Origin: Alphaproteobacteria bacterium
GTDB lineage: Bacteria > Pseudomonadota > Alphaproteobacteria > JASGCL01
Length of the DNA: 64,000 nt
Direction: 5' to 3'
Assembly (NCBI GenBank): GCA_965262605.1
Contig: CBDHFN010000002.1
Location: forward strand, 153,107-217,106
Below the pieces are notes generated by a model. The model was not told the origin of the DNA. It worked only from the letters and a program-made list of their open reading frames with translations, and ran no database searches. A program made the translations under genes and the position numbers. Of the stretch, positions 1,157 to 47,128 are shown one piece after another (position 1 is the first letter of the stretch; each line of letters begins with the position of its first letter).

Positions 1157-2039
1157 TCATCACCTTTTGCGGGTATTTATGCCGATTTTTAAATTTCAGA
1201 CTTATCCAAATCACAATCATGCTAACCACGACAACACCGCCCATAAGCGTTTGCTGGCTTGGCAATTGCCCAACAACCGCCCAAACCCATAAAGGACCAA
1301 ATAAAGTTTCCAATAAATATAATAATAAAGTTTCTTCGGGTGAGACATATTTTGACATGACGGAAGTTAAATAAAAGCTTAACGCGCAAATCATGCCATT
1401 AAAAAGCATGATTTTCATAGAATCATCAGGAATAACCACATTAAAATTCATAAAAGGTATGCAAATTAAAGCAGTTACCAATGAGCTAAGCGAAATAGTA
1501 AGCAAAATGTTAATTTTAGGGTGCGCCCGCAAATAAATATAAAATGCCGCTAAATTAAACGCGCATAAAACCGAAGCCATTGACCCCCAAAAATCGCCAC
1601 GCACAAAATCGCCCTGCATGACAATCGCAACCCCAAGAAAAACTCCAATAATTGTCACCCAATTAGTCAATGAAACTTTGGATTTCAAAAAAAATACCGA
1701 CAAAAACGCCCCAATTAAAGGCGAAGCAGCAATGATGACAAGATTTGATGCCACCGAATTATGCAAAGTTCCCAAAACGAACCCCAATGAACCCAAGGGA
1801 TAAAAAAACAACACAGGGTAAATAATTTTAAATTCCGCAAGAAAATTTTGAAAAATTGGCAAGTTTTTTCGCTTCATAATAAATAAAGCCAACATGGTTA
1901 AAACGATAAATTGTGAAAAATGCCGATAAAATGTCACTGTAAAGCTATCTTGATTTGCCAGCGTAATTAATAAACTATCAGGAGTTAAAATCATAACTCC
2001 TAACGCGGTGATTAATAAGGCTTTTAATTCTTGATTCAT
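1149..2039 (-). CDS. DMT/EamA-family membrane transporter (about 10 TM)
   Basis: 296 aa, highly hydrophobic with about 10 predicted helices. The fold assignment rests on the hydropathy pattern only. Confidence 0.55.
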   Translation of the reverse strand: MNQELKALLITALGVMILTPDSLLITLANQDSFTVTFYRHFSQFIVLTMLALFIMKRKNLPIFQNFLAEFKIIYPVLFFYPLGSLGFVLGTLHNSVASNLVIIAASPLIGAFLSVFFLKSKVSLTNWVTIIGVFLGVAIVMQGDFVRGDFWGSMASVLCAFNLAAFYIYLRAHPKINILLTISLSSLVTALICIPFMNFNVVIPDDSMKIMLFNGMICALSFYLTSVMSKYVSPEETLLLYLLETLFGPLWVWAVVGQLPSQQTLMGGVVVVSMIVIWISLKFKNRHKYPQKVMNE

Positions 2040-3280
2040 GAAGTTTTACTATCGCGAATCCATTGGCGTGAAATGGCTTCAATTTTTTCGCCTTGAAATA
2101 ATTGCGCGCCCATTTTAACCCCGACTTGCAACGATTCCAAGGAATTAATATTGCGCAAAATAAATCGTTCTGGACGAATTTGCAAAATAATATTTTTGAT
2201 GATTTCTTGAATATCAAATGAATGATGATGCGCGAAATTTTCTGGGGGTTCAAAAAATAATAAATCAAAGTCCAAATATTCGGCATTAACCAGACTTAAA
2301 ACATCTAAATTCACGCCATGAATCGCGACAATATGCCCCCTTGAACGCAAAAATTTTAAACATTCCGTGTATGAATTAATATTATGTAAAACATTATAAA
2401 TATCCACTTCAACCACCAAGAAATTTTCATTATTCCATTTATTATTTGTGACAAAGCTTAAAAATTCGGGGCTACAAATCGCACCTTGCGATAATTTCAA
2501 CCCCACGGATTTCGTGCCTAAAACCACGCTGCGCATTGCTAATAATCGCAATAATCGTTTTTGGCACGCATCGTCAAGACTATATCGCAAAAAACTTGAA
2601 GGGTCAAGTTCATTGGAAGGAAGAAGAATTTTACATAATTCATCAAGCTTAATTGATGCTTCGGTAAAAAGCTTTTCCGCCACGCCATGGTCGGGAAAAA
2701 ATGAAAAAATTGGCGTTTGTTGCACAAAATTTTTCAAATTCACGGTGGAGATATATTCTTCGGATTTTGAAATTTGCCGTGCCGTGGCGGGCGATTTGAT
2801 AAATTTGCCGCGTTCATCGTTTGGAAAATTTTTCGTGGTATTTTCAGGGTCAATAACATAAATAGTATCGCGAACAAACGATTCAAAATTGACGGGTGCT
2901 TGAAAATTATAAATGCGGTAAATTTCCGAAAATAAGCTAATTCGGCTGATTTTGAAAAAATACTCATCATGGCTGATGATTTCTGCCAAGGCGTTAAAGC
3001 GTTTTTCCAATGCTGACATGCCAATATTTTTTATGACAATAATTAAAACTCCAGAATCCGTATGAAAATACCGACCGGCAAAAGTCTTAATAATATCTTC
3101 AAACCATTTTTCAACAATTTTGCTGTAAATATATCGTTCGGTCGCATCGGCAATGATACTGCAATTAATAATAGTTGCGCAATAAAGCGTTTGCTTTGCG
3201 CGAATTATTTCTACATATTCTTTTAATTTCTGGGCGTGTTCGCCCAAAATTTGTGTATTCTCGTTATTATTTCCAGTCAT
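2036..3280 (-). CDS. Hypothetical cytoplasmic protein, possibly a degenerate GGDEF/EAL-like (c-di-GMP related) protein
   Basis: 414 aa. The C-terminal 150 aa loosely resemble an EAL domain with the DDFGTG motif replaced (IHGVNLDVLSL), ending in ...GAQLFQGEKI. A central RYFHTDSGVLIIV stretch resembles a degenerate RYGGDEF motif. Confidence 0.45.
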   Translation of the reverse strand: MTGNNNENTQILGEHAQKLKEYVEIIRAKQTLYCATIINCSIIADATERYIYSKIVEKWFEDIIKTFAGRYFHTDSGVLIIVIKNIGMSALEKRFNALAEIISHDEYFFKISRISLFSEIYRIYNFQAPVNFESFVRDTIYVIDPENTTKNFPNDERGKFIKSPATARQISKSEEYISTVNLKNFVQQTPIFSFFPDHGVAEKLFTEASIKLDELCKILLPSNELDPSSFLRYSLDDACQKRLLRLLAMRSVVLGTKSVGLKLSQGAICSPEFLSFVTNNKWNNENFLVVEVDIYNVLHNINSYTECLKFLRSRGHIVAIHGVNLDVLSLVNAEYLDFDLLFFEPPENFAHHHSFDIQEIIKNIILQIRPERFILRNINSLESLQVGVKMGAQLFQGEKIEAISRQWIRDSKTS

Positions 3281-3341: not shown

Positions 3342-4001
3342 TTATTCATCTTCGTTTATATCATATTTAACCCCAAAAGCTTGATTTAATAAATCAAGTT
3401 GCGATTGAGTTTCATTATTTTCATCGTCTTCGTCCATGCTTAATTGGTGCATTGCATGCCCGCTTTCTAATAATCCTAATGATTTAAGTTCGTTCATGGC
3501 GGGTAAATCTTTTAAATCCGTTAAGCCAAAATGCACCAAAAAGCTTTCGGTCGTGCCAAAACATAATGGTCTGCCCGGAATTTTTTTGCGCCCCTTAGGT
3601 TTTACCCAACCCGTTTCCAATAAAATATCCAAAGTGCCCTTTGATAAGGCAACCCCCCTTACCTCTTCAATATCGGCGCGGGTGACTGGCTGATGATAGG
3701 CAATAATTGCCAGAGTTTCCAATGCCGCACGGGATAATTTTTTTTGTTCTTGTTTATATTTTACTAAATAAGGGGCTAAATCGGGGGCGCTGGTTAATAA
3801 ATACCCATCAAGGTGGCGCACTAAATTCACGCCGCGGTTTTTATAAATTTCGTGCAATTCGTGCAAAATTTCGTCAATATCGGCGTTATTGGGCAATAAG
3901 GCTTGCAATTCTTGGCGCGTCAAGGGTGTAGCAGAGGCAAATAACGCCGCTTCAATTAATCTTGTATAATTATGCGCTTCAAGCATCAAAATCACCTTCA
4001 C
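3342..4001 (-). CDS. scpB: Segregation and condensation protein B (ScpB)
   Basis: 219 aa with ScpB winged-helix sequence (LEAALFASATPLTRQEL...ETLAIIAYHQPVTRADIEEVRG) and an acidic C-terminal tail. Confidence 0.9.
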   Translation of the reverse strand: MKVILMLEAHNYTRLIEAALFASATPLTRQELQALLPNNADIDEILHELHEIYKNRGVNLVRHLDGYLLTSAPDLAPYLVKYKQEQKKLSRAALETLAIIAYHQPVTRADIEEVRGVALSKGTLDILLETGWVKPKGRKKIPGRPLCFGTTESFLVHFGLTDLKDLPAMNELKSLGLLESGHAMHQLSMDEDDENNETQSQLDLLNQAFGVKYDINEDE

Positions 4002-4719
4002 TTTTTTTTGCTTTTATTTCAATATTGCCAAAAAAATCGGCTTGGCGCATCTGAATTTTAGCATCACGATTCATTTCCAAAATCGCGCATAAAGTTGCGG
4101 CAAATGCTGACCTTGCTTGCAATTTTGTGGGATATTTTTTATCAAAGCTTTGTTCCATGTTAATCCATTCGCGCAATTTTGGCAATAATAATTCCAGCCT
4201 TTGAATCGCAATTTCGGTTGATTCTAAATTTGTCGGTAAAATCGCTAAATTCCCAATTTTTTGGCGACCACGACAATAAGCATATGCAAGAATTAATTCG
4301 TTAATTTCCGTATTAAATAATGATTTTTTAAAAATCATTATATTTTGCGCCATGCCCCGTGTGAAAAACTCACTGCCCCATTGTGGGCGGGCTTGTAATT
4401 CGCGGGCTTTTTCTTGAATTTCGCTTAAAATCAACAATGCCTGACGGGTTAGGGTAAATTCTTCGGGTTCATCAATTTGGTCTTGGGGGATTAATAATTG
4501 CGATTTAAGATAAGTTAAATAGCTTGCCATCACCAGATATTCGGCGGTTAAATCCAAATGTTGCGCCGCTGATTTATCTATAAATTCCAGATATTTATCG
4601 CATAATTGCGTCATGGATATTTGCCGTAAATCAACTTGTTGGGCGCGGGCTAAATTAAGCAATAAATCCAAGGGTCCTTCAAAATTATTGATGGATATTT
4701 GCCAAATTTCTTCACTCAT
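3979..4719 (-). CDS. scpA: Segregation and condensation protein A (ScpA)
   Basis: 246 aa with an ScpA N-terminus (FEGPLDLLLNLARAQQVDLRQISMTQL). It overlaps scpB. Confidence 0.9.
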   Translation of the reverse strand: MSEEIWQISINNFEGPLDLLLNLARAQQVDLRQISMTQLCDKYLEFIDKSAAQHLDLTAEYLVMASYLTYLKSQLLIPQDQIDEPEEFTLTRQALLILSEIQEKARELQARPQWGSEFFTRGMAQNIMIFKKSLFNTEINELILAYAYCRGRQKIGNLAILPTNLESTEIAIQRLELLLPKLREWINMEQSFDKKYPTKLQARSAFAATLCAILEMNRDAKIQMRQADFFGNIEIKAKKSEGDFDA

Positions 4720-5716
4720 CTTGCCATAAATCCCCTAAAATCGCCTTAACGATTTGAAAATTTGCGGCAATATCAATTTTTGTATCAGGGTAAGTTTCGC
4801 TTAATAAAAATTTTTCTTTATGATTAAGGGGCAAAATCGCATCGGCTATTTCTTGCATTTGCTCTAATTCGCCGTTGCAATGCAAGACTAAATCACAACC
4901 AGCATTAAGGCATTTTATGGTGCGCTCATGATAAGTGCCTTGCAACGCCTTCATTGATAAATCATCGGACATTATCAAGCCATGAAAACCAATTTGTTCG
5001 CGAATCACTTCGCCCAAAATACGCTTAGACATGGTGGCGCAATTATCCGCATCAAGCGAATTGTAAATAATATGCGCCGTCATCGCCAATGGGAATAAAT
5101 TGCAATATTCAAAGGGATAAAAATCATGGGCAAGGGTTGCAAGGTCTGCCGCAACGATTGGTAAATCTTCGTGCGAATCGCAATTGGCGCGCCCATGCCC
5201 GGGAATGTGCTTGATAATGGGTTTAATGCCATAATTCATCAATGTTTTACCATATTCATGCGCCAATATCGCGATGATATTTTTATCCGCGCTAAACGCG
5301 CGATTGCCAATAATATCATGCGCGCCGCTGATGGCTAAATCAATTAAAGGCGCGCAATTAATTGTAATTCCCAATTCTTGAAATTCGCCCGCTTGCCATG
5401 CGGCATAACTTTGAATTGCTTGAATCGCTTTTTGGGAATCACGCAAATAAGCTTGCCCAAAAATCGCCATATTCGGGGCGGGCAACCATTCGGGCGGTTT
5501 TAACCTGCGCACCCTGCCGCCTTCTTGGTCAATAAGAAATTCCAAATTATGCCCGATATTTATTGATTTACATTCGTCAATTAAAGCCTTAGTTTGCGCT
5601 TTATTTTTAATATTGCGGGCGAATAATATAATGCCCCATGGTTGATGTTTGGCGATAAATTGCCGTTCCAAAAAATTAAGTTCGGTTGATTTTATGCCAA
5701 TAATAAGCGGTTTCAT
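4712..5716 (-). CDS. nagZ: Beta-N-acetylhexosaminidase NagZ (GH3)
   Basis: 334 aa with GH3 NagZ motifs (DQEGGRVRRL, IKHIPGHGRANCDSHEDLP). Confidence 0.9.
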   Translation of the reverse strand: MKPLIIGIKSTELNFLERQFIAKHQPWGIILFARNIKNKAQTKALIDECKSINIGHNLEFLIDQEGGRVRRLKPPEWLPAPNMAIFGQAYLRDSQKAIQAIQSYAAWQAGEFQELGITINCAPLIDLAISGAHDIIGNRAFSADKNIIAILAHEYGKTLMNYGIKPIIKHIPGHGRANCDSHEDLPIVAADLATLAHDFYPFEYCNLFPLAMTAHIIYNSLDADNCATMSKRILGEVIREQIGFHGLIMSDDLSMKALQGTYHERTIKCLNAGCDLVLHCNGELEQMQEIADAILPLNHKEKFLLSETYPDTKIDIAANFQIVKAILGDLWQDE

Positions 5717-5718
5717 GG

Positions 5719-6999
5719 TTAAGCTCCTGCCACTGGTTTAAGAGTAGATTGCATGATTTTTTGCCAAATTATCGTGATGATTAATAAAACCATGGGTATG
5801 GCAAAGCCTAATTTATAGGCATCTTCTAAAATCCAGCCCCAGTCCATCACCATATCAATAACCACACCAATAAGCCATTGAAAAATAAAAGCCATGACAA
5901 ATGCCAATAAATTTAACGCGCTATTCACCCGCCCGGTGATGCGTATATCAAAAACCTGAGACAACAACCCATATGTTAAAATGCCCGACCCCATACAGCC
6001 AACAACTAAAAACATGCCCCAAAAGCTGAATTGCGGGGGCAAAAAAACAATAATGGCAAAGCCAAAAATGATAATATATTGCCCCGCTAAAATTAATCCT
6101 TCGGTGCTGCAAATACCCATTTTGGGTAAAATTTGCGAACCAAAGCCAAAAATCACATATCCTAACACCATACATACCGCCGCCAATGACATGATATTAC
6201 CAACATCATGCAAGCTAAACCCCGCCACTGATTTTAAATATAACGCCCCCCATAAGAAAATAACAGCAACCTGTGAGGCTTGGGAAATCACGGTGGGCGG
6301 GGTTAAAATCCAAAATCTTTTATCGGCAAAAATAATTTTATATTGCTTAAAGCTTGCCCAAAATTCTTCTTGATTATCATTGCTTGCCTTGGGTTTTTCA
6401 AATTTCGGGGGCATGAATAAAATCATCAAGGCTATTATAAAAGTCGCAACGGCTAAAATAATAAAAACACCCCGCCAATCGGTATAATTTAGCAATATTT
6501 CCACGGGACCTGAGCCAATTAAAGCCCCAGCACCGCCCGCCATCATTTGCATATTATTCATCATGGGTAATTTTTCGCGGGCAAAACATTCGCTATACGC
6601 CTTAAAAGCCGCCATAAGACTGGCACAGACACCAAAGCCGATTAACCCCCTGCCTAAGATTAAATGCCACGATTCTGTAGCTTGGGAAAAAATCAACGCC
6701 CCTAAAACTGCAAAAAATAATAAAAACCCTTCAGTTTTGCGCGCGCCAATTCTGTCAAGCATCACCCCCATTGGAATTTGCATCAAGGTAAATGTCAAAA
6801 AATAACTTGCTGTCATTAAGCCTAAATCAGATTTTGTCAGCAAAAATTCGGTGGATAAAATTCCGCCAACCATGCCATTTACCACGCGAAATAAAAACGA
6901 AATTAAATACCCCAAAGCAAAGGGAATATAAAGCCGAACAATAAACATAAAATTTAAATTAGCATGGGACGATTGCGAATTAATCATTGGTTTCACCAT
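5719..6999 (-). CDS. MFS transporter (possibly AmpG-type muropeptide permease, from context with nagZ)
   Basis: The ORF 5719-7035 encodes 12 or more TM helices. The likely start is an internal Met (6999 or 6987) just after the cytochrome stop at 6980. The stop lies 2 nt from the nagZ start. Confidence 0.7.
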   Translation of the reverse strand: MVKPMINSQSSHANLNFMFIVRLYIPFALGYLISFLFRVVNGMVGGILSTEFLLTKSDLGLMTASYFLTFTLMQIPMGVMLDRIGARKTEGFLLFFAVLGALIFSQATESWHLILGRGLIGFGVCASLMAAFKAYSECFAREKLPMMNNMQMMAGGAGALIGSGPVEILLNYTDWRGVFIILAVATFIIALMILFMPPKFEKPKASNDNQEEFWASFKQYKIIFADKRFWILTPPTVISQASQVAVIFLWGALYLKSVAGFSLHDVGNIMSLAAVCMVLGYVIFGFGSQILPKMGICSTEGLILAGQYIIIFGFAIIVFLPPQFSFWGMFLVVGCMGSGILTYGLLSQVFDIRITGRVNSALNLLAFVMAFIFQWLIGVVIDMVMDWGWILEDAYKLGFAIPMVLLIITIIWQKIMQSTLKPVAGA

Positions 7000-8962
7000 T
7001 TTCACTTTCTGGTTTAACAATGTTAACGCCGTCAATATTTATTGTATTTTTTGTCGCATTTATTGACTTGCCATGATATAAATGGCAAGTTTTGCAATCG
7101 GTTGAAGCCCCATTTTTAACATGGCATAAATCGCAAGTATCCTTGGAGATAACATGGAAATTCCTGTCGGGTTTTGTAATGGATAAATCATGAAATTCTT
7201 CGTAATAATTTGAAACTTCATTTAACTGATGGCATGCCAAACATGCGCCATCACCCAAAATTTCATAATGCGGTTTATGTTTAAATTTTGTGTATTTTAA
7301 TTGATTTTTCTCGGGCGGATTAATTACCCAATTAGTCATCAGTATTTTCATCGCGTTATTTTCAATTTCCGATTTTTTGTCTTTTATATTTATTTGTTCT
7401 TGGGAATGGCAATTTAAGCAACCACCAACAACTTGTCGGTTATGAAATAACTCATTTATCCTATCAAAACTTGGTTGCAACAGCGGAGTTTTGAAATAAT
7501 TTATAGTTGTGTCAATCCAATTCTTAATAAATTCATCTTGATGGGATATGGGGCGATATACTATGCCGTTTCGGTCTAATGTCCAATTTTGTTTGGGGTA
7601 AAGGCTTTCAAACGATTTCACAGGATTAAATGCGTTATGAATTGGACGATTTTCATGATATTTTATAATTTCATCGCGAAATTGCCCGCCAAAATACCGC
7701 ACTATAAATTGATTGCTTAAATCGCGCGGAATGGAAAGCGTTAATTTCTTATTATTTTCATCGTTACCATCAGTAATATCCAATAATAAAAGCTTGTAAG
7801 CCCATATTAATTTAGCAATTTCTTGCAAATCTGCTTTGCTTACTTTTGATAAATCATTCAATCCAGTTGCGCGATATTTATTCATTATTTCGCTTAATTC
7901 AATTTGCGAAGTAAGCAAATAATCCACCATTGGATTAAACCAATTTTTACCGCGCTCTAAAATTGGGTATGCGCCAATAATTACATTATTATTGGCAAAC
8001 GCATTCGTGTCAATGATTGGCAATGCAATCACTTCAATGGGTTTAATACCGGGCGCGTCTTGTCCGGTTACCGTGGCGATATGGCATGACAAACCGCAAG
8101 TTTGCTCAAAAGATTTAGTTGTCATGTCTGATTTATTGCCGTCTTGGGTATTATTAATAACATGGCAAAATTGGCAATCATTCGGCGCTTCACCCAAAGC
8201 TGGATTTAAATTTGCGAATTTTTCAAAATGCCGTGCATGGTCAAAAATAATTCTGCCACGGCGTTTAAATGGAAAATTCAGAAAATTAGGATGCGTATTT
8301 TCAAAATCCGTAATATTAATTAAATGGCATTGCGTGCATACTTCATTATTATCAGTTCGGTCTGTAAATGAAGTTTTACCATGCCCGCGATGGCATTCCG
8401 CGCAATCACCGGGCGATTCTTGTAATTCGGTTGCCCCAAAAATATATCCAAACCAGCGGCGATACCACGGACGCTCTTTTAGAAATATTCCGTGTTTGGC
8501 TAAATCAAATTGTTCTTTATTATGCGGATTTTTATAATTTTCGCCAACATCATGGCACGACAGACATGATTTATTATCATCGCCTAATTTTAAGGTAAAT
8601 ACATCGTGCAAAATTGGAAAAGACAGATTTTCATTGGGTTTAATATGGCATTGTTCGCAATTTTCAATGGATGCGTGGTTCGCGGATAATGGACCCGGGC
8701 TTAAAACATTATGCCCTAAAATGCCGCTAAAAATTACCATCATCAGCACAAAAGTTGCCAAACCTAATAAAAAAGAGATAATTAACCAGAATTTACGGCT
8801 TTCATATTTTGGTTCGCAATATTCAGATATTGGCAAATTTTCCAGCGATTTACCGCATTTACCTTGAATAGTCGGTCCGTATTTACAATGAATATTATCC
8901 GCGCACTTATAATTGGCATTCGGGCGCGGAAAATATCTTTTGCGAAAATTTTCAAATTTCAT
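6980..8962 (-). CDS. Membrane-anchored multiheme cytochrome c (about 10 haem-binding sites)
   Basis: 660 aa. It has nine CxxCH motifs (CEQCH, CLSCH, CAECH, CTQCH, CQFCH, CLNCH, CLACH, CDLCH, CKTCH) plus one CxxxCH (CGLSCH). It also has an N-terminal Cys-rich segment followed by a single TM helix (FWLIISFLLGLATFVLMMVIFSGIL). Confidence 0.85.
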   Translation of the reverse strand: MKFENFRKRYFPRPNANYKCADNIHCKYGPTIQGKCGKSLENLPISEYCEPKYESRKFWLIISFLLGLATFVLMMVIFSGILGHNVLSPGPLSANHASIENCEQCHIKPNENLSFPILHDVFTLKLGDDNKSCLSCHDVGENYKNPHNKEQFDLAKHGIFLKERPWYRRWFGYIFGATELQESPGDCAECHRGHGKTSFTDRTDNNEVCTQCHLINITDFENTHPNFLNFPFKRRGRIIFDHARHFEKFANLNPALGEAPNDCQFCHVINNTQDGNKSDMTTKSFEQTCGLSCHIATVTGQDAPGIKPIEVIALPIIDTNAFANNNVIIGAYPILERGKNWFNPMVDYLLTSQIELSEIMNKYRATGLNDLSKVSKADLQEIAKLIWAYKLLLLDITDGNDENNKKLTLSIPRDLSNQFIVRYFGGQFRDEIIKYHENRPIHNAFNPVKSFESLYPKQNWTLDRNGIVYRPISHQDEFIKNWIDTTINYFKTPLLQPSFDRINELFHNRQVVGGCLNCHSQEQINIKDKKSEIENNAMKILMTNWVINPPEKNQLKYTKFKHKPHYEILGDGACLACHQLNEVSNYYEEFHDLSITKPDRNFHVISKDTCDLCHVKNGASTDCKTCHLYHGKSINATKNTINIDGVNIVKPESENGETND

Positions 8963-9975
8963 TTATAACCTACTTCTGTAAATAAAATATATTTCCATAC
9001 ATGGAATATAATTATCGCCCAAAGGCTGGGCACAAATAAGGCGTGTATTTTATAAAAAAACCGCATTATAAAATAAAAAACATGCGTATTATTTAAAATA
9101 TTTTTATTTTCAATTAAAATCTTAATTGCGTGTAATTCTTGATGAAATTCATCGCCAAAAACACGAATTAATTCATTAATAATATCCAAATTCCTGCGAT
9201 ATGCGCGTTGATTAAATTGGAATTTACCGAAATAGTCAACATAATTACTGGCGAATAATTCCACGATATTTTCCGCCTTTTTGATTAATTTTAATCGTTC
9301 ATAATATTTGAAAAATTCTTGGTGAATAAAATATTTCTCGGTATAAATTTGATTATAGCTTAATAATTCATGGTTATTAATGGCAAGTTTCGGCAAAAAC
9401 CGATTAATAATTTCTTGAATTATCCCTGAAATACATATTATCATGGCAAAAATAATAATTAAATATCCCATAAAATTTAGACTGCGGTTATTAAAAACAT
9501 GAAAATAAAATATAATCAACCAAATTAACCCCGTCATGACATGCAGATATTTCCAATCCTTGGCATTGGGCAAAGGCAAAGCACCATATCGTTTTTTTAT
9601 GCCATAAATAGTTTGAATAGCCATACCAATTAACAAAAATATCCCCAAAAGCGATTGGTTATCATAACCAACTTTATTGCCATAAACAATCAATAACCCA
9701 ATTATCGCAACGGACACAAGCAACATATTTGATAAGGAAGGTAATTTTTTGCCAATAATTTTACAATAATTATATAATAATTTAAAATCTCTAAGGCTAT
9801 ATCGGCGGGTGAACGCTTGAGTTATCATTGCTTTTAATGGTAATTTTTTTAAAAAATAATAAATATTTAAAATATTAAAATATAAATCTTTGGCAAAGCT
9901 ATATAATTTCATGGTAAATTTAACCCATAAATTTTTCATAATATTCATCAAAAATTGTTGATAATTTTCGTTCAT
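8959..9975 (-). CDS. Ferric-reductase/NOX/MsrQ-like di-haem-b membrane protein (split FRD domain with a soluble insert)
   Basis: The ORF is 8959-10086, and the likely start is Met38 at 9975, giving an ATGA overlap with the ferredoxin stop. There are six predicted TM helices. Two helices each carry an H-x13-H pair (YLHVMTGLIWLIIFYFHVF; KIHALFVPSLWAIIIFHVW), which is the bis-haem signature of ferric reductase domains. About 110 aa of soluble sequence are inserted between TM4 and TM5. Confidence 0.7.
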   Translation of the reverse strand: MNENYQQFLMNIMKNLWVKFTMKLYSFAKDLYFNILNIYYFLKKLPLKAMITQAFTRRYSLRDFKLLYNYCKIIGKKLPSLSNMLLVSVAIIGLLIVYGNKVGYDNQSLLGIFLLIGMAIQTIYGIKKRYGALPLPNAKDWKYLHVMTGLIWLIIFYFHVFNNRSLNFMGYLIIIFAMIICISGIIQEIINRFLPKLAINNHELLSYNQIYTEKYFIHQEFFKYYERLKLIKKAENIVELFASNYVDYFGKFQFNQRAYRRNLDIINELIRVFGDEFHQELHAIKILIENKNILNNTHVFYFIMRFFYKIHALFVPSLWAIIIFHVWKYILFTEVGYK

Positions 9976-10445
9976 TGCCAATCCACTAATGCCTGTCTGT
10001 CCGATAAATTCACCCGCCGCATTGCCCCAGTCGGACAAGCAGACACGCATGCCGCACCGCCAAGTCTGCCAACGCATAAATCGCATTTAACCGCTTTTTT
10101 AATTGGGGTTTCGGTCTTTTGATTAAGCAATAATTCGCCATTATTATTAAAAATATCCACTATGCGCACGGAATGGAACGGGCATGCTTGTTCGCAATTA
10201 CCGCAACCAATGCAATCATTTTCCGAAATTGAAGTTTGATATGAAGTTGCAATTGGGCGTTGAATCGCGCTTGTCGGGCAACTTGTCAAGCATTGCGGAT
10301 CCAAACAATGCAAACAAGCATTCGCAAAAATTAACTTATTATATTGCGTTCCCGATCTTGCAAATCGGGGATTACCATCATGCGCATTGGCGCAAGCACT
10401 CACGCAATCATCGCACCCCGTGCATAATTGGGAATTAATAACCAT
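9972..10445 (-). CDS. Ferredoxin with four [4Fe-4S] clusters (NapG/NrfC/DmsB-type), no signal peptide
   Basis: 157 aa with four complete cluster motifs: CTGCDDCVSAC, CLHCLDPQCLTSCP, CIGCGNCEQACP and CDLCVGRLGGAACVSACP. Confidence 0.85.
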   Translation of the reverse strand: MVINSQLCTGCDDCVSACANAHDGNPRFARSGTQYNKLIFANACLHCLDPQCLTSCPTSAIQRPIATSYQTSISENDCIGCGNCEQACPFHSVRIVDIFNNNGELLLNQKTETPIKKAVKCDLCVGRLGGAACVSACPTGAMRRVNLSDRQALVDWQ

Positions 10446-10470
10446 GACTTCAGTGCCCGCGACAATATTT

Positions 10471-11598
10471 TCAGATATGAAAAAAAAAATTAACCCCTGG
10501 GTCGTAATTATTTTCAGATTTTTGGGCGATTTCTTTTCGGCGATAATTACTGATAATTTCTTTTTTTGCTAATTCCAGCGCGCTTAACGGAATAAATATC
10601 GCATCCAGCGCACCGATAGAGCTTACAGACACATTAAAAATTGGTGGTTCCTCCGATGAAGATTCCCAATATTCAATCAAGTCTTTAATCCCAAAAATAT
10701 CATCTTTAATGAGGTAATTTATAGTTTCCGTGCCAATTTCGCGGGGAATAAAAATTCGCCCATTGCCCGAAATTACTATCATTATACCATCTAATTTATC
10801 GCCTTTATCAAACAAGACTATTTCATCTTTTGTATCTTGCTTGGTAATATCGTCCTGCATACCATGGCGTTGAAATTGCGCTTGTTTTGTGATGGAAGCC
10901 AATAAATGTTCAGGGACATTTTCAAATAATTCAAAATTTTTCAAAGTATTATTCAAGACATTTACTTTATATGATTCAACGATTTGCTGATTAATAACTT
11001 GGTCGCGCAATAAAATTTGCCTTAACCCCTGCCAGCGCATTTCAATGACTTCGGCATCATCAGTCGCCACCACCGAAGCCGAACGAACAGAACGAGTCAT
11101 TGCCGCAATTTCGCCCAGCATTTGCCCAACTTTACAAGGAATTTTAATAATTGCATCATCAATCATGATTAAATCAAAACTGCTCATTTTGGCATTAACT
11201 TCATTATTAAAATGATGAAAAATATGCTTTGTGTCTGCTTCGCTACGCATTTCTTGGGCATAGTTTTTCACCATGAAAGCATTTGATATTTGATGAATAA
11301 TTTTAACGCTTGCGGTTTCTTCTTCGCCAACCAAGAAATTATCATCAGATCCTTCCAATAAAATTGTGAAATTTCCAGATTTTATAAAATAAATACTGGT
11401 CGCTAAATGCCCTTTTGACATTAAAATTTCACCGCGCTTAAATTTGCGAACGCGGCAATTTTGTTGCACAATATTTTGCAAAGTATAAGGTTCAGGGAAA
11501 TTACGCGGGTTTGCTTGGCTTAAAATTGTTTTTTCAAACAAGAAATTTTGCGCAAATTCGCTTAGCCCCCATTTATTATCAACAAATTTATCTGCCAT
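10471..11598 (-). CDS. Tandem cyclic-nucleotide-binding (CNB) domain protein with no recognisable output domain
   Basis: 375 aa with two Crp-like CNB signatures (FKRGEILMSKGHLATSIYFIKSGNFTIL and VLFDKGDKLDGIMIVISGNGRIF). I see no HTH. Confidence 0.65.
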   Translation of the reverse strand: MADKFVDNKWGLSEFAQNFLFEKTILSQANPRNFPEPYTLQNIVQQNCRVRKFKRGEILMSKGHLATSIYFIKSGNFTILLEGSDDNFLVGEEETASVKIIHQISNAFMVKNYAQEMRSEADTKHIFHHFNNEVNAKMSSFDLIMIDDAIIKIPCKVGQMLGEIAAMTRSVRSASVVATDDAEVIEMRWQGLRQILLRDQVINQQIVESYKVNVLNNTLKNFELFENVPEHLLASITKQAQFQRHGMQDDITKQDTKDEIVLFDKGDKLDGIMIVISGNGRIFIPREIGTETINYLIKDDIFGIKDLIEYWESSSEEPPIFNVSVSSIGALDAIFIPLSALELAKKEIISNYRRKEIAQKSENNYDPGVNFFFHI

Positions 11599-11600
11599 AA

Positions 11601-12860
11601 TTAATAATCCAATTCAATATCTGATGCTACTTGCGAAATACAGGCAAGCGTAAACCCATCTGGAACTGCGAAACTAGGTTGCACAATATTTTTTACTGCA
11701 CCTTTAACCTTGATTAAGCAAGCCCCGCAATTGCCAGTTTTACATCCGCTGTCCATAAATATATCATGTTCTTTGGCAATTTCAAGTATTGTTTTATCAT
11801 TCGGCGCGGGAATTTTAATATTACTGCGCAAAAAATTAATATTATGGATATTTTGGGCAACTTCTTCATGCGTCTCATTATCTAAAATTCGTTGAATTTT
11901 ATGCATTGAACGGGCATTGAAGGCTTCATAAATGAAATTTTCGGGGGGCAATCCCATTTTAATTAAATCGGGTAAAATCCCTTGAATCAAGGCATCTGAA
12001 CCGCAAAAATACACAATATAATCTGCGGGATTGCCTTGAAAATCAAAAATCTTGCTGGCTTTGGGGTGATTTGATTGATATTGTTCCGCCGCCTCATTCA
12101 TCATTTGGCGGGTAAATATCGGTATATAAGAAAAGTTTTTTTCCAACGAAAGCCCCGTTAGTTCACTGCCAAATGGTAAATTTAAAGCATCTTTTGCAAT
12201 ATGAATAATTTTAATATTTTGCATAATTGCTTCGTCAATTTCTTGCGCCATCGCATAAAATGGCGTTATACCAATACCACCCGCAAGAAAATACACTTTT
12301 TTTGTTGCATGTTCTGGGTTAAAGATAAAATTACCTTGCGGGGGGACAACGGCAATCGTATTACCAATTTTAATTTGTTTATGAATTTGCCTTGAAACGC
12401 TAAATTCATTGGTTGAATTTAAGTCTAATTTCACCGCAATTTCGTAATATTCATTTTGATTAGAATTATTAATTAAGCTATAACATCTCAGGTGCTTTTT
12501 TATTTTAGCATCGTAAAATTTACAAGTAATAAATTGACCAGCTTTAAATCTTGCTAATTTCGCCTTATTTACAGGATTAAGCCTTAATAAGACTATGTCT
12601 TTGGCGATTTCTTTTTTAATTTCAACTATATATCTTTGCGCTAAATTTTCCTTGTCAGTATGGTTAATTGCCTTGTCAATTTTGAATTTTAACCGAAATT
12701 TTTGATACGCCATAATTTCATACAAATATGATTTAAGTATTTTAGAATAAAACCGCCAGCTTAATTTAACGCAATAATAAAGCGCAACGACCATGATAAA
12801 ATACCAAATTGGATGCTGAAACATCAAATCAAAAATTTTTTGCCACGGCTGAAATTTCAT
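11601..12860 (-). CDS. Membrane-anchored FNR-family flavin reductase (FAD/NAD(P)H) with a C-terminal plant-type [2Fe-2S] ferredoxin domain
   Basis: 419 aa. It has an N-terminal TM helix, the RxYS FAD motif (RCYSLINNS), the NAD(P) motif VYFLAGGIGITPFYAM, and a C-terminal CKTGNCGAC...LAC (CX4CX2C...C). Its start forms an ATGA overlap with the stop of the methyltransferase. Confidence 0.8.
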   Translation of the reverse strand: MKFQPWQKIFDLMFQHPIWYFIMVVALYYCVKLSWRFYSKILKSYLYEIMAYQKFRLKFKIDKAINHTDKENLAQRYIVEIKKEIAKDIVLLRLNPVNKAKLARFKAGQFITCKFYDAKIKKHLRCYSLINNSNQNEYYEIAVKLDLNSTNEFSVSRQIHKQIKIGNTIAVVPPQGNFIFNPEHATKKVYFLAGGIGITPFYAMAQEIDEAIMQNIKIIHIAKDALNLPFGSELTGLSLEKNFSYIPIFTRQMMNEAAEQYQSNHPKASKIFDFQGNPADYIVYFCGSDALIQGILPDLIKMGLPPENFIYEAFNARSMHKIQRILDNETHEEVAQNIHNINFLRSNIKIPAPNDKTILEIAKEHDIFMDSGCKTGNCGACLIKVKGAVKNIVQPSFAVPDGFTLACISQVASDIELDY

Positions 12861-14419
12861 ATCATCGCACCAATTTTCAAATAATGGTTATATTTTGCGC
12901 TTACTAAATTTTTAAAATTTTGCATAATTTCATCGTCGCTTTTTGCTTCGGCATTCACTGTGATTCTGCCTGCTTTCATTAATCCCATCAAATGATCGGC
13001 AATATCACCGATAGTATGTTCGCCATTCATCAATGGAATAATAATTTTATCAGTATCATCAACCTTAGAATTATTGTGAAAAATTGTGCAAATATTGCCA
13101 TTTATTTGGCTTGAAACCGCGCCCCGCGCCCAACCATTTATCTTGGGTTTTTCATCAACTTGCACCGAGATTGGAAATTTCACGGGTGTCATCGTTAAAA
13201 ATCCGCGGGCAAATAATTGTAATATATTTGATTTAAAGAATGTTAAAATTTTATCTTGGGCTAATTCATTATTTTTATTATGAATAAATTGCACCCATTC
13301 ATTAAGCATCATGGGCAATCGGTGTCCCGCCATAATTTCTAAAACTTTATTCGGTAATTCATTTTCATTGCCGATTGAAACTTCGTTTGCACGCAATTTC
13401 CAATTGCCATTTTCAGTTCTGGACACATCAAAATGCAAATAAAAATTCATGGATTCAAGCAATTCAACATTCCAAACTTTACTTAATTTACGCTCTTTTC
13501 GGCAAACGACTGACGAACGAAATTGCCGATTCAAGACAAAATCAGCCATTTGCTCGGCATCTATGCGTTTTCTTGATTCTTCAAATATTTTTTTGACATT
13601 GGGTGCCATATTATCAAGGATATGGGCAATGGCATTGCTTTCCGCGACAAATGCCAAGCCATTATTTTCGCACATGCTATTAAATTCATGAAAATATAGT
13701 GGCTCATTAATGCCTTCCAATAATTCGTGCGACAAATAATAATCAGGGGCATTCATCCAAGTATCATAACGGTTACGCAGTTCTTTCACTAAAATATTTT
13801 CATTTTCGCCCGCTAATTGAGAGATTTCTTCAAAAAATTTTTTAGATTTTTCCAGTTGTAATTTTTTATCTTTGCTATATTTTCTGCCTTCATACATCAT
13901 AATATCGCGAATTGTTAATAAAAAATTCCAGCCCGGACGCGTATTATAACTTAAAATCGCTAAACCATCGTCGGTTAAACTATGTTGCAGGTTTAATAAA
14001 ATTGCTTTTTGCACATGATCCGGCACCCATGAAAAAACACCATGGCAAATTATATAATCAAATTTTCCCATTAAAGTTGCATAATCAGCAATTGAACCAC
14101 TTATGAAATGTATATTTTCCACGCCACCATTGGTTGCTATCCTGCGTGCTTCGGCAATTTGTTTATCGGAAATATCTATGCCAAAAAATTGCCCTTGGGG
14201 GAATTTAATTGCCATGGGAAAAAGATTATTACCAATCGCGCAACCAATCTCCAAAACCCGCATTTTATCCATCGGCGTTGGGTTTAAACCAAATAATTTG
14301 CCGATTAAATATAAATTATCGGGGTGCGTGTTCGCATGCGTGCCACCCGGATATAATATATCATTATAACTATCTCTTGCATCGGCTTCGGAATAATCGG
14401 TCATATTTTCCCCAATCAA
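12857..14419 (-). CDS. Class I SAM-dependent methyltransferase with a C-terminal regulatory-type extension
   Basis: 520 aa. The N-terminal Rossmann SAM motif is VLEIGCAIGNNLFPMA...DYIICHGVFSWV. The roughly 300 aa C-terminal extension resembles methyltransferase regulatory domains. Confidence 0.7.
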   Translation of the reverse strand: MIGENMTDYSEADARDSYNDILYPGGTHANTHPDNLYLIGKLFGLNPTPMDKMRVLEIGCAIGNNLFPMAIKFPQGQFFGIDISDKQIAEARRIATNGGVENIHFISGSIADYATLMGKFDYIICHGVFSWVPDHVQKAILLNLQHSLTDDGLAILSYNTRPGWNFLLTIRDIMMYEGRKYSKDKKLQLEKSKKFFEEISQLAGENENILVKELRNRYDTWMNAPDYYLSHELLEGINEPLYFHEFNSMCENNGLAFVAESNAIAHILDNMAPNVKKIFEESRKRIDAEQMADFVLNRQFRSSVVCRKERKLSKVWNVELLESMNFYLHFDVSRTENGNWKLRANEVSIGNENELPNKVLEIMAGHRLPMMLNEWVQFIHNKNNELAQDKILTFFKSNILQLFARGFLTMTPVKFPISVQVDEKPKINGWARGAVSSQINGNICTIFHNNSKVDDTDKIIIPLMNGEHTIGDIADHLMGLMKAGRITVNAEAKSDDEIMQNFKNLVSAKYNHYLKIGAMI

Positions 14420-21974: not shown

Positions 21975-22694
21975 TTAATTTGGCGGTAAATCCCATAATA
22001 TTTTGGTAAGTTTAACGGCGTTTTCTAAATTTTCCATGGTAAATTCGGGGGAAAAATCATCATTACCAAAGCTTATAGCCCAATTAGCATCAGTTTTTTG
22101 AATAATATCTTGAATTTGGTCATGATGAAACCCCGTGGTGATATTGCCGCTATACACGGCACCGCCATCGGCTGTATTTAGCAAAAGTTTTAATTCCAAA
22201 ACGGGTGCGGGGGGCGTTATAGTCATAAAATATTTACCATTTTTATCATATCCCAAGGATATATTATGCCAATATAACCAGCATACTTTTTTGCGGTCGT
22301 ATTTGTCAGTACGGCAAGAAATTTGGTAATCATCGTCATTGCCCCTTAAAAAAGGGGCGTGCGTATCTTTTTGCAATTGGGCATTGTAATTCGCGTAATT
22401 CACAATATAAAACGAACCATTAATATCGCCAATTTCTTGCAAATGAATAAAATTCTCTAAATATGGCAACTCGCTATACACACGGCAAGAAATTCTGCCT
22501 TCGGGCAAAATGGGTTTATTGCGCATTAATAAATGCGGAATAATTTGCCGTGGCGCGTTAAATTTTGCGGGACTGCCTTCATAAATTATATCGGGGCAAA
22601 ACAGCAAATTCTCTGCCTTGGCATTTTTATAGCCCAAAAAGCAAACCACGCCTAAAATAGCAAAAAATTTAAAATAATTGACGCACGACTTCAT
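21975..22694 (-). CDS. Secreted hypothetical protein (signal peptide)
   Basis: 239 aa with an N-terminal signal sequence (FFAILGVVCFLGYKNAKA). I recognise no catalytic motif. Confidence 0.5.
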   Translation of the reverse strand: MKSCVNYFKFFAILGVVCFLGYKNAKAENLLFCPDIIYEGSPAKFNAPRQIIPHLLMRNKPILPEGRISCRVYSELPYLENFIHLQEIGDINGSFYIVNYANYNAQLQKDTHAPFLRGNDDDYQISCRTDKYDRKKVCWLYWHNISLGYDKNGKYFMTITPPAPVLELKLLLNTADGGAVYSGNITTGFHHDQIQDIIQKTDANWAISFGNDDFSPEFTMENLENAVKLTKILWDLPPN

Positions 22695-45615: not shown

Positions 45616-45924
45616 TTAAAAATCTATTGGAAAATTCTTCTTACGGGTTTTCTTGCGATATTGGCGCAATTCATAAAATTCGCGCACGGAATCTTGGTCC
45701 AACGATTTTGGGATTTTCTCGCTTAAACCCATTATCCATAACGCCGTCATCACGCAATTTAACGAAACCGAACCATCACCCGATTCAATTTTACGCAAAG
45801 TCGGCAAGGAAACATCCATTCGTCTTGCTAATTCCTGCGCTGATATATTGCGGGCAATGCGCGCTTGCTTAACGCGCAAGCCAAATTGCTTTAACTCATC
45901 TTGAATTTGCATAACTTCAAGCAT
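45616..45924 (-). CDS. XRE-family HTH protein (HipB-like partner)
   Basis: 102 aa with an HTH_XRE sequence (LRVKQARIARNISAQELARRMDVSLPTLRKIESG). It overlaps the HipA-like gene by 8 nt and lies downstream of it. Confidence 0.8.
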   Translation of the reverse strand: MLEVMQIQDELKQFGLRVKQARIARNISAQELARRMDVSLPTLRKIESGDGSVSLNCVMTALWIMGLSEKIPKSLDQDSVREFYELRQYRKKTRKKNFPIDF

Positions 45925-47128
45925 ATTTCGCCAACACGGATTGCGGAATTTTATTCGGACGATTCATGATTTTTTGCAAATCTTCATCGGTCATGTTATA
46001 TTTTTTAGCAAGTATAGGGAATAATTCTGATTGTTCAATCGCCTTTTTAACAATTTCGCGCGCCCTTGTTTCGTCAATTCCTAAAACTTGATGCAATTTA
46101 AACCCATCGTCTAAATCGCAATCATGCGAAGTTGCTAATTTTAACGACATTTTATTATTAAATTGTGGCACTATATCAAAAACGGGCGCCAATTCCCAAA
46201 TGCCAAGGCGGCATAAAAAACCATGATTTTTGGCATGGTCATCGCTGTTTCCCAACAAGATATTCATAATTGCGCGGGCAAAAATCTCTTGATTAAGGGG
46301 CATGGTAAGTCCTTTACAGCCAAGTTTTTGCGCAATATTATAATAATCATAATATGATTTATCGGTTCGGTAATCGTCATGGCATAAACCCAATGCCGAA
46401 GCCAACGACATATAACCAAGAGGGGTAAGATTAAGATTTTCAGAATCAACCATATCAAAACGAAATAACGCCAAACAAAATTCATCATTAATAATTACAA
46501 ATTGATTATGCGTAGTGCGCAATCCAACCAAAGAAACAATAACCAAGCAAGTTTTTTCGGCTTTTAAATCATCAATGATTGATTCCCGATTAGGCATTTT
46601 AACCAAAGCATTTGGAAATAATAATTTAGGATTCGCCCCGCCCGCCGAAGCATTTGAACCAAGTATTAATTGGTCGGGTTTTAAAATTTGTTTTATTAAT
46701 TCTTTGTTTTCAATAAAAAAATCTTTTTGATTTTTTCGTTTTTCCACAAAATCTGGCGCATTTGGCGTAAGCCCAAATTCCAAATTGCCAATTTTATGCA
46801 AGGGCAAATGCAAAATATAATCCATAATACTGGCATTTTGCGGCAAATTATGCGTGGTGCGCAAGATTTTTTTGCCCCAACTATCAGGGCAGACATCTTC
46901 AAAAATGCCGTGAATTTGCAATTTATCCGCGGGATAAAAATCACCATCACTAAGGGGTAAGTGGATTGGGTCAACGGCATAATTATCTTCACGGGCAAGC
47001 CAGCTTTTGGCATATTGGAATTTATAGCGCGTCTGCCCCGTGGGCATTTTACCGCAAGGCGTAAGGATTCCTAAATTAACATAATTTTCGGCTGATTCAT
47101 GATAAATAAAAACAAATATTTCTTTCAT
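45917..47128 (-). CDS. hipA: HipA-family serine/threonine kinase (toxin-like)
   Basis: 403 aa with a HipA N-terminal domain and a C-terminal catalytic motif LLGNSDDHAKNHGFL (DxHxKN). Confidence 0.8.
   Translation of the reverse strand: MKEIFVFIYHESAENYVNLGILTPCGKMPTGQTRYKFQYAKSWLAREDNYAVDPIHLPLSDGDFYPADKLQIHGIFEDVCPDSWGKKILRTTHNLPQNASIMDYILHLPLHKIGNLEFGLTPNAPDFVEKRKNQKDFFIENKELIKQILKPDQLILGSNASAGGANPKLLFPNALVKMPNRESIIDDLKAEKTCLVIVSLVGLRTTHNQFVIINDEFCLALFRFDMVDSENLNLTPLGYMSLASALGLCHDDYRTDKSYYDYYNIAQKLGCKGLTMPLNQEIFARAIMNILLGNSDDHAKNHGFLCRLGIWELAPVFDIVPQFNNKMSLKLATSHDCDLDDGFKLHQVLGIDETRAREIVKKAIEQSELFPILAKKYNMTDEDLQKIMNRPNKIPQSVLAKYA

Follow-up and report, generated by a model that had tools for sequence, protein, structure and literature searches.

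A 64-kb stretch of alphaproteobacterial DNA (contig CBDHFN010000002.1, positions 153,107 to 217,106; called the window below, meaning the whole stretch) carries a tightly packed string of minus-strand genes that includes ptdG, the gene for a large c-type cytochrome. This gene is an intact open reading frame (ORF) of 660 codons at 6980..8962, with an ATG start and zero internal stops. The initial annotation, an earlier reading of the sequence alone, had given the span and length of the frame correctly but had overlooked the strand. We conclude with high confidence that the product is a membrane-anchored decahaem cytochrome of the PtdG family. It is encoded on the same strand as a predicted dihaem b cytochrome (ptdF, 8959..9975), a protein with cyclic nucleotide monophosphate (cNMP)-binding and polyferredoxin domains (ptdE, 9972..11598), and a flavin-containing reductase (ptdC', 11601..12860).

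The haem-attachment motifs of PtdG agree in number and kind with those that had been annotated, with nine CxxCH motifs at residues 102, 133, 187, 209, 263, 515, 574, 610 and 623, and one CxxxCH motif (CGLSCH) at residue 289. A chance origin for this set can be excluded because 20,000 rounds of shuffling the protein gave a mean of 0.037 CxxCH motifs and a maximum of 2, compared to the nine observed. All 20 of the cysteines beyond the N-terminus fall within the ten haem motifs, and a six-frame scan of the window for ORFs of at least 60 aa found a single CxxCH in just one ORF besides ptdG. The CGLSCH sequence aligns column for column with the canonical CxxCH of relatives (CSACH in protein P0003 from locus L003), and its two cysteines and histidine are invariant in 141 full-length family members. 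It is a genuine tenth haem site.

Although the count of ten haems was right, the sites are not spread through a long non-repetitive polypeptide as had been described, but are arranged in two blocks around a haem-free domain. Residues 1-57 (8792..8962) form an N-terminal segment, which carries an RPN motif and the four remaining cysteines of the protein, C20, C26, C36 and C49 (C-x5-C-x9-C-x12-C). This segment, presumed to bind metal, precedes a single transmembrane (TM) helix at residues 58-82 (8717..8791), which serves as a signal anchor. The helix is the sole such segment in the protein, with a Kyte-Doolittle window mean of up to 2.79, and the corresponding region of an AlphaFold model is helical from residue 55 to 79, with predicted local distance difference test (pLDDT) values of 88-95. 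Haem block 1 (residues 96-294; 8081..8677) holds haems 1-6, including the CGLSCH site, together with conserved distal histidines at positions 96, 147, 194, 224, 242 and 245. The haem-free central domain of about 215 aa (residues 295-510; 7433..8080) is mostly helical and conserved, with pLDDT values mostly above 90 and invariant residues D318, G330, L371, K390, W460, H474 and D476, among which H474 would serve as a further haem ligand. Haem block 2 (residues 511-630; 7073..7432) holds haems 7-10 and the conserved distal histidines 562, 565 and 630.

The topology of the protein can be deduced from three observations. Haem attachment to c-type cytochromes occurs in the periplasm, there is only one TM helix, and 12 lysine or arginine residues are present in the 57 residues before this helix, compared to none in the 15 residues after it. 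The cysteine module is therefore expected to be cytoplasmic and the haems periplasmic. This outcome agrees with the earlier description of an inner-membrane-anchored cytochrome with a cysteine-rich segment ahead of the TM helix, for which a cytoplasmic N-terminus had been put forward as the point to check, and family-wide conservation of the motifs, the extra histidines and the four cysteines points the same way.

The cytochrome had been regarded as an unexpected find, but it belongs to a family that has already been named and that is large rather than rare. An exhaustive profile search against 1.84 billion representatives of 50%-identity clusters gave 1,828 matches at E<=1e-3, mostly full length, and 962 of them reached E<=1e-30, which makes this a widespread family of about 1,000 clusters at 50% identity. 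A word-indexed search had found only three proteins (PtdG itself, a 57% relative and a 31% relative), and the orphan status that this result suggested was overturned by the exhaustive search. Conservation figures were drawn from the 141 best full-length matches. Exactly ten CxxCH motifs are present in 127 of these 141 relatives, and each of the thirty haem-motif residues is kept in 96-100% of them. There are also exactly ten invariant or near-invariant histidines outside the motifs (96, 147, 194, 224, 242, 245, 474, 562, 565 and 630), enough to provide a second axial histidine for every haem, and PtdG therefore has the marks of an electron wire, not of a multihaem enzyme with a catalytic role. 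The four N-terminal cysteines are conserved in 72-77% of the relatives, with gaps at these positions in the others. In most relatives this module is doubled, with eight cysteines in two repeats, and the window protein has a shortened four-cysteine form. All 30 motif residues, the ten distal histidines and the four N-terminal cysteines are shared by the window protein and a relative with which it has only 57% overall identity.

The form with nine CxxCH motifs and one CxxxCH occurs in five of the 141 representatives, always as CG..CH at haem 6: the window protein (region 8081-8095, residues 289-294), P0002, P0045, P0087 and P0137. This CX3CH site is present in all three compact low-GC gene clusters examined here (the window, L001 and L008) and could either mark a clade or have several independent origins.

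Searches of domain and structure collections place the protein in no previously modeled family. When it was compared with curated models, including those of the NrfB, MtrA, OTR and HAO type that had been proposed as a check, it obtained only generic cytochrome c3/c7 matches (Cytochrome_C7/CIII), with nothing near a curated cut-off, and no curated Pfam or NCBIfam model for PtdG was found. In NCBIfam it scored 25 bits to HmcA (cut-off 400) and 19 bits to NrfH (cut-off 134). HmcA or another high-molecular-weight cytochrome c3, with 16 haems in c3-like repeats, was rejected on the first of these scores, and a NapC/NirT/CymA tetrahaem protein on the second and on the lack of a Cytochrom_NNT match. 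NrfB and NrfH were also set aside on model scores and architecture, and so were the catalytic multihaem enzymes (NrfA, HAO and the octahaem reductases), given that PtdG has no Pfam or NCBIfam match to the NrfA, HAO or OTR families, no CxxCK motif and ten spare histidines. No match in Pfam or the PDB was obtained when the N-terminal cysteine module and the central haem-free domain were each searched alone, and a Foldseek search of the PDB with the AlphaFold model (pLDDT 77.7) gave no match at E<=0.001. Family profiles built from 3 and from 61 sequences likewise found no solved structure of the PtdG family in the PDB. Their sole match was chain A of 6r2q (E 1.3e-7), a weak local alignment over about 130 residues of haem block 1. 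This chain is listed under another molecule name, but we take it to be MtrA, the decahaem cytochrome of the Shewanella MtrCAB conduit.

The name of the family comes from the penta/tetra/deca-haem cluster ptdABCDEFG (bioRxiv 10.1101/2023.11.21.568154). In that description PtdC is an FAD/NAD(P) oxidoreductase, PtdE a cNMP-binding protein with 4Fe-4S clusters, PtdF a ferric-reductase-like membrane protein and PtdG a decahaem cytochrome, and the function of the cluster is called "completely unknown". The 20 examples listed there all have seven genes and come from marine or saline sources, and at least ptdAB is highly transcribed in an ocean oxygen-deficient zone (bioRxiv 10.1101/2023.11.21.568154).

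Loci with the same layout were recovered here as L003-L007, from high-GC Alphaproteobacteria and metagenomes (GC 54-66%). Their genes run in the same direction and encode a pentahaem protein (about 660 aa), a protein without haem motifs (about 620-715 aa), an FAD/NAD/[2Fe-2S] protein, a tetrahaem protein, a cNMP/4Fe-4S fusion, a membrane protein of about 300 aa and a decahaem protein of 840-1,020 aa. Within this set the FAD/NAD/[2Fe-2S] protein was identified by Pfam in L003 only, and the cNMP/4Fe-4S fusion was confirmed in L005 and L007. No cNMP/4Fe-4S gene was called in L003, which keeps the membrane protein and the decahaem cytochrome beside the flavoprotein and the tetrahaem protein. The window protein is homologous to the decahaem proteins of these clusters over its full length at 25-31% identity (31% to P0003 in L003), with all haem ligands aligned, and tblastn searches with it against L004-L007 gave E values of 2e-25 to 4e-38. 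The order cNMP/4Fe-4S gene, membrane protein gene, decahaem gene is found in the window and in L001, L002, L005, L007 and L008. Because the window gene is homologous to the decahaem gene of loci whose layout matches the published seven-gene description, it can be identified as ptdG.

The genes from 14419 down to 5719 all lie on the minus strand and are joined by 4-nt ATGA overlaps or 2-nt gaps. The ATGA overlaps occur between a methyltransferase gene and ptdC', between ptdE and ptdF, and between ptdF and ptdG. As far as can be read from the DNA, ptdC'-ptdE-ptdF-ptdG is a translationally coupled four-gene module with ptdG as its last member. Components resembling an NADPH oxidase (NOX) had already been noticed beside the cytochrome, and these are indeed present as a ferredoxin-NADP reductase-type FAD/NAD(P)H/[2Fe-2S] protein and a five-TM protein with two HX13H pairs, but a frameshift in ptdE had been overlooked.

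The 338-aa, five-TM product of ptdF is a predicted dihaem b cytochrome. Its start is the ATG at 9975, and the 375-aa ORF in the program-made list is over-extended. The protein carries W141-x3-H145-x13-H159 on TM3, SGxxQ on TM4 and F307-x3-H311-x13-H325 on TM5. TM4 and TM5 are separated by a helical insert of 110 aa on the cytoplasmic side, which is a candidate docking surface. There are 11-12 invariant columns in sets of 5 and 31 homologues, and four of these columns are H145, H159, H311 and H325. By the positive-inside rule, TM3 and TM5 both run from the cytoplasm to the periplasm, which would place the first histidine of each pair (H145, H311) at the inner level of the membrane and the second (H159, H325) at the outer one. 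From this geometry, which is that of cytochrome b and of the NOX/ferric-reductase domain, a transmembrane stack of two b haems is predicted. Pfam gave sub-threshold matches to DUF4405 and Ni_hydr_CYTB and no match to Ferric_reduct (PF01794). A Foldseek search of the PDB with the AlphaFold model (pLDDT 77.1) returned helical-bundle noise only, and the TM domains of solved NOX, STEAP and MsrQ structures were not matched. PtdF would thus work like a ferric-reductase domain by its motifs, and it is not filed here as a member of that superfamily.

The gene for PtdE is split by a +1 frameshift into a 375-aa ORF with two cNMP-binding domains (10471-11598; Pfam cNMP_binding, 1.1e-18) and a 157-aa ORF with 16 cysteines in four ferredoxin-type groups (9972-10445). 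The latter matches Fer4 families and has sub-threshold NCBIfam matches to HydN, DmsB and NrfC. In relatives the two parts are fused as one protein of 543-603 aa (L001, L005, L007 and L008). The frame breaks at a run of ten T residues on the coding strand (10480..10489), which is the longest homopolymer of the window, and removing one T restores a 541-aa PtdE colinear with its relative; L001 has only six T residues at this site. A single frameshift in a long homopolymer is typical of assembly error or of the transcriptional-slippage-rescued tracts of AT-rich symbionts. The break may accordingly be an assembly error, a real frameshift or pseudogene lesion, or a tract rescued by slippage.

PtdC' is a 419-aa reductase in which, by Pfam and NCBIfam matches, an N-terminal hydrophobic helix (TM segment at residues 9-27) is followed by FAD_binding_6, NAD_binding_1 and a C-terminal [2Fe-2S] ferredoxin domain. 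Its FAD-NAD-Fer2 order differs from the Fer2-FAD-NAD order of the canonical PtdC in L003, with which it shares 19% identity, and the same 418-419-aa form is found in L001 and L008.

The compact form of the cluster recurs in L001/L002 (GC 39-40%) and L008 (GC 34%), where PtdC' again has 418-419 aa and PtdG, at about 650 aa, again has CG..CH as its haem 6 site. Neither the pentahaem PtdA, the porin PtdB nor the tetrahaem PtdD was found in the window, which has no multihaem ORF besides ptdG and no porin candidate, and ptdA, ptdB and ptdD are likewise missing from the flanks of L001 and L008. Their absence argues against membership of the window locus in a full ptdABCDEFG cluster, although these genes could lie elsewhere in the genome. 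The compact C'-E-F-G setting is therefore a previously undescribed variant of ptd in low-GC alphaproteobacteria, within a family that is itself already named and widespread. In L008 (12289-20709) the compact cluster is directly followed by a phage-type integrase and defence-like genes (ThsB_TIR, SLATT, SocA_Panacea, pentapeptide), and it may border a mobile island there. A different arrangement is seen in L010 (1249-7958), which encodes a pentahaem protein, a 467-aa haem-free protein, a tetrahaem protein, a 182-aa protein and a decahaem protein, with no flavoprotein and no cNMP/ferredoxin gene. L010 carries A, B, D and G without C or E, and the ptd family is modular.

Other genes in the window provide context for the cluster. 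At the head of the gene string is a gene for a 520-aa S-adenosylmethionine-dependent methyltransferase resembling protein-lysine methyltransferases (PKMTs) (12857..14419, minus strand; Pfam MethyTransf_Reg 2.4e-19, Methyltransf_31/25/12, PKMT_2nd 5.9e-8), which combines MethyTransf_Reg with the PKMT winged-helix domains of the rickettsial enzymes. At the other end, the 5' end of an MFS transporter gene (5719..7035, minus strand; Pfam MFS_1 6e-36) overlaps the 3' end of ptdG. The listed ORF begins at TTG 7035, and its likely start is ATG 6999; the top NCBIfam match is a sub-threshold D-galactonate-type subfamily. The methyltransferase gene is also found in L001/L002 but not in L008, and the MFS gene is found at the same position and with the same overlap in L001 but not in L008. 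Because both are common to the window and L001 but not L008, they are lineage-specific additions. The stop of the MFS gene overlaps the start of nagZ, as it also does in L001, and a nagZ-scpA-scpB run (3342-5716, minus strand) lies directly downstream. Farther away are a HipA-like toxin kinase gene (45917-47128, minus strand; HipA_C 4.4e-27 and Couple_hipA) and two minus-strand ORFs of 414 aa (2036-3280) and 239 aa (21975-22694), neither of which matches a Pfam family at E<=0.001. The 239-aa ORF opens with a signal-peptide-like hydrophobic stretch. Scans of the window for tRNAs and Rfam families were empty, with no rRNA or tRNA found.

An exact-sequence look-up of PtdG in public contigs found no record. 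The AccC protein of the window has its best named matches in Alphaproteobacteria (64-67% identity), a level that places the organism no more finely than this class, and the nagZ-scpA-scpB order, which is typical of Alphaproteobacteria, fits this placement. A closer AccC match, at 83% identity, is on a contig of assembly GCA_013572995.1, which also holds L001. Given contig numbering above 957,000, this appears to be a eukaryote or metagenome assembly with a bacterial passenger. Host association of the window organism is plausible from its low GC content and the assembly of its closest relative. Literature searches for multihaem cytochromes in Holosporales and Rickettsiales symbionts found nothing.

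The gene content of the compact cluster suggests how its products might work together. The account that we favor, with somewhat better than even confidence, is a quinone-independent chain that carries electrons outward from NAD(P)H to the periplasm under cyclic nucleotide gating. It builds on the ORFs, motifs, conservation, gene order and homology described above, and in it the occupancy of cofactors, how the subunits touch, which way electrons flow, the gating and the acceptor are all predictions. Electrons from NAD(P)H would enter at FAD and pass to the [2Fe-2S] cluster of membrane-tethered PtdC', and from there to as many as four [4Fe-4S] clusters in PtdE, whose two cNMP-binding domains might act as an allosteric gate. 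They would then cross the membrane through two stacked b haems in PtdF, with histidine ligation of the NOX/ferric-reductase type, and reach the ten low-spin c haems of PtdG in the periplasm. The cytoplasmic pyridine-nucleotide pool would in this way be linked to the periplasm without quinones, and on the inner face the insert of PtdF and the four-cysteine tail of PtdG are candidates for docking or metal binding. The products of full clusters could extend the path to the cell surface through PtdD and the porin-pentahaem pair PtdB/PtdA. The chain of the compact clade probably ends at a periplasmic acceptor, since ptdA, ptdB and ptdD are missing from the window locus and from two related low-GC loci. 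Outward flow, the direction in which NOX and ferric reductase (FRE) enzymes move electrons, is favored by the inside-negative membrane potential. The redox potential is also expected to drop between the flavin and the bis-histidine c haems, which would favor the same direction.

A number of observations weigh against such a chain. Because ptdE is out of frame in the window sequence, the chain may be broken in the organism. The fold searches with PtdG and PtdF gave no solved relative, and the NOX-like reading of PtdF therefore rests on its motifs and on weak Pfam matches. M280 of PtdG is nearly invariant, and one haem with histidine/methionine ligation is possible. The absence of ptdC and ptdE from L010 indicates that PtdG can be fed in another way. 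The window contains no visible candidate for a periplasmic electron acceptor. It also has no Ccm or System II (Ccs) genes for cytochrome c maturation and no tryptophan-rich haem-handling motif in any frame. However, nearly all alphaproteobacteria, reduced symbionts included, keep Ccm for the bc1 complex and cytochrome c, which makes it unlikely that PtdG lacks the maturation machinery it needs. Finally, no component of a ptd cluster has been studied biochemically (bioRxiv 10.1101/2023.11.21.568154).

Several other explanations must be weighed against this account. PtdF might be a quinol- or quinone-reactive cytochrome b, with PtdG fed from the quinone pool in the manner of CymA, ImcH or CbcL, and with PtdC' and PtdE serving as regulators or as an alternative input. 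Exactly this was proposed by He et al. 2017 for five-TM proteins with WX3HX13H motifs (PMC5566968), and both the occurrence of PtdG without ptdC or ptdE in L010 and the weak Pfam similarity of PtdF to Ni_hydr_CYTB, a quinone-reactive family, would suit it. Yet the flavoprotein and polyferredoxin genes stand side by side, with translational coupling, in all three compact clusters, and the full clusters L004, L005 and L007 also encode the two proteins (with the fusion confirmed in L005 and L007), with L003 as the exception. In addition, the 110-aa cytoplasmic insert of PtdF resembles a docking surface, no quinone-site motif was identified in PtdF, and PtdG has no Cytochrom_NNT (NapC/NirT) match. 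On this balance a quinone-coupled system seems unlikely. The same set of proteins could be imagined to run inward, with Fe(II), reduced host compounds or some other donor in the periplasm or outside the cell supplying PtdG, and with PtdF and PtdE relaying the electrons to NAD(P)+ or ferredoxin. The cofactors of the chain are reversible in principle, and related inner-membrane proteins occur in gene clusters of Fe(II) oxidizers (PMC5566968), but flow in this direction would oppose the membrane potential. By established bioenergetics, reduction of NAD(P)+ from bis-histidine c haems would be strongly uphill for a system with no energy-coupling subunit, and the low-GC clusters lack an outer-membrane conduit, all of which makes uptake very unlikely.

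A further concern is that the cluster might be a remnant that is being lost from a shrinking host-associated genome, in which ptdG is intact but no longer functional. The ptdE frameshift, the failure to find ptdA, ptdB and ptdD in the window, and the low GC content could all be viewed in this light. However, the lone frameshift falls in the longest homopolymer of the window, and ptdG, ptdF and ptdC' remain full-length ORFs within DNA of 32-38% GC. The haem-motif residues, distal histidines and N-terminal cysteines are all retained in comparison with the 57%-identical relative, and L001, L002 and L008 all have the four genes of the compact form intact, which makes it a stable architecture. Decay is accordingly judged to be quite unlikely. 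It is even more improbable that PtdG is itself an enzyme that acts on a nitrogen or sulfur oxyanion in the manner of NrfA, HAO, the octahaem nitrite and tetrathionate reductases or MccA. The proposal draws on a speculated role in the nitrogen cycle, on the placement of PtdA in the NrfA COG and on the presence of clusters in nitrite oxidizers (bioRxiv 10.1101/2023.11.21.568154), but that speculation concerns PtdA and PtdC rather than PtdG. No match to the NrfA, HAO or OTR families was obtained, there is no CxxCK or other atypical catalytic motif, and the ten extra histidines would suffice for bis-histidine ligation throughout.

A more specific scenario can also be offered, although we regard it as rather doubtful. 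A low-GC and possibly eukaryote-associated lineage might have kept the inner-membrane half of ptd as a self-contained, cyclic nucleotide-gated "NOX with ten-haem extension". This system would send NAD(P)H electrons through 17 cofactors to the periplasm, bypassing quinones and the respiratory chain. At the interface with the host, the electrons could go to iron or oxidants from the host or generate reactive oxygen species, with the four-cysteine tail as an extra metal site that wires or senses the cytoplasmic side. Activity in a host-associated bacterium would represent a new type of symbiont-host redox interface. If the cluster proves to be only a relic, it would instead date and order the steps by which a shrinking genome loses extracellular electron transfer. 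The compact form isolates what appears to be the core of the system, a quinone-independent chain across the inner membrane in which flavin, iron-sulfur clusters, b haems and c haems follow one another, apparently under cyclic nucleotide control. With four genes rather than seven, it is also far more accessible to heterologous expression and to structure determination.

Comparisons with known systems help to define what is shared and what is particular to the window cluster. The window protein has the same ten haem sites as the published PtdG and is encoded directly after PtdE and PtdF, with PtdC in the cluster. It differs from the full-cluster forms in its length (660 aa versus 840-1,020 aa), in the CX3CH site at haem 6 and in its halved N-terminal cysteine module. 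The PtdC' protein, with its opposite domain order and its membrane anchor, and the GC content of the genome (about 38% versus 54-66%) also set the window apart from full ptd clusters. Whereas the preprint calls PtdG "periplasmic" (bioRxiv 10.1101/2023.11.21.568154), the window protein is clearly membrane anchored and has a cytoplasmic tail.

Among other multihaem cytochromes, MtrA is likewise a ten-haem protein of the bis-histidine wire type, but it is a soluble protein of 333 aa inserted in the MtrB barrel. PtdG is twice as long, is signal anchored and contains 215 aa of haem-free domain, the window encodes no barrel partner for it, and the profile match between the two is local and driven by motifs. 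The MtrA/MtrD/DmsE/PioA group comprises soluble periplasmic decahaem proteins of about 300-350 aa that have a cleaved signal peptide and are paired with an outer-membrane beta-barrel gene. Membership of this group was therefore rejected as an identity for this 660-aa protein, whose TM helix starts at residue 58 and whose gene has no barrel gene or second cytochrome gene nearby. An N-terminal anchor with a periplasmic multihaem domain, and a place where electron transfer in the periplasm begins, are shared with CymA/NapC/NirT, ImcH and CbcL, but those proteins are fed by quinol, and the neighbors of PtdG point to NAD(P)H.

The membrane partner also has parallels. The PCC3/PCC4 inner-membrane proteins of Fe(II)-oxidizing bacteria have five TM helices, of which TM3 and TM5 carry WX3HX13H and TM4 carries SGxxG, and they have been interpreted as binding two b haems (PMC5566968). 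By this described signature PtdF can be likened to them, given that it too has five TM helices, HX13H on TM3 and TM5, and an SGxx motif on TM4, and adjoins periplasmic multihaem cytochromes. In PtdF the TM5 pair follows an F instead of a W, and the TM4 motif is SGxxQ. No cytoplasmic flavoprotein or ferredoxin partners were described for the PCC3/PCC4 clusters.

With NOX and FRE enzymes the comparison extends to the whole chain. Unlike these enzymes, the window system is split over separate polypeptides, places a [2Fe-2S] cluster and four [4Fe-4S] clusters between the flavin and the haems, and has a ten-haem c cytochrome on the outside. The histidine spacing is 13/12 in NOX and 13/13 in PtdF, for which neither a PF01794 match nor a structural match was obtained. 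Even so, the two histidine pairs on TM3 and TM5 that mark NOX and FRE enzymes are present in PtdF (H145/H159 and H311/H325, across 31 sequences). The chain logic would also be the same, in that electrons are carried from NAD(P)H to flavin and then outward through two b haems held by two histidine pairs on two TM helices.

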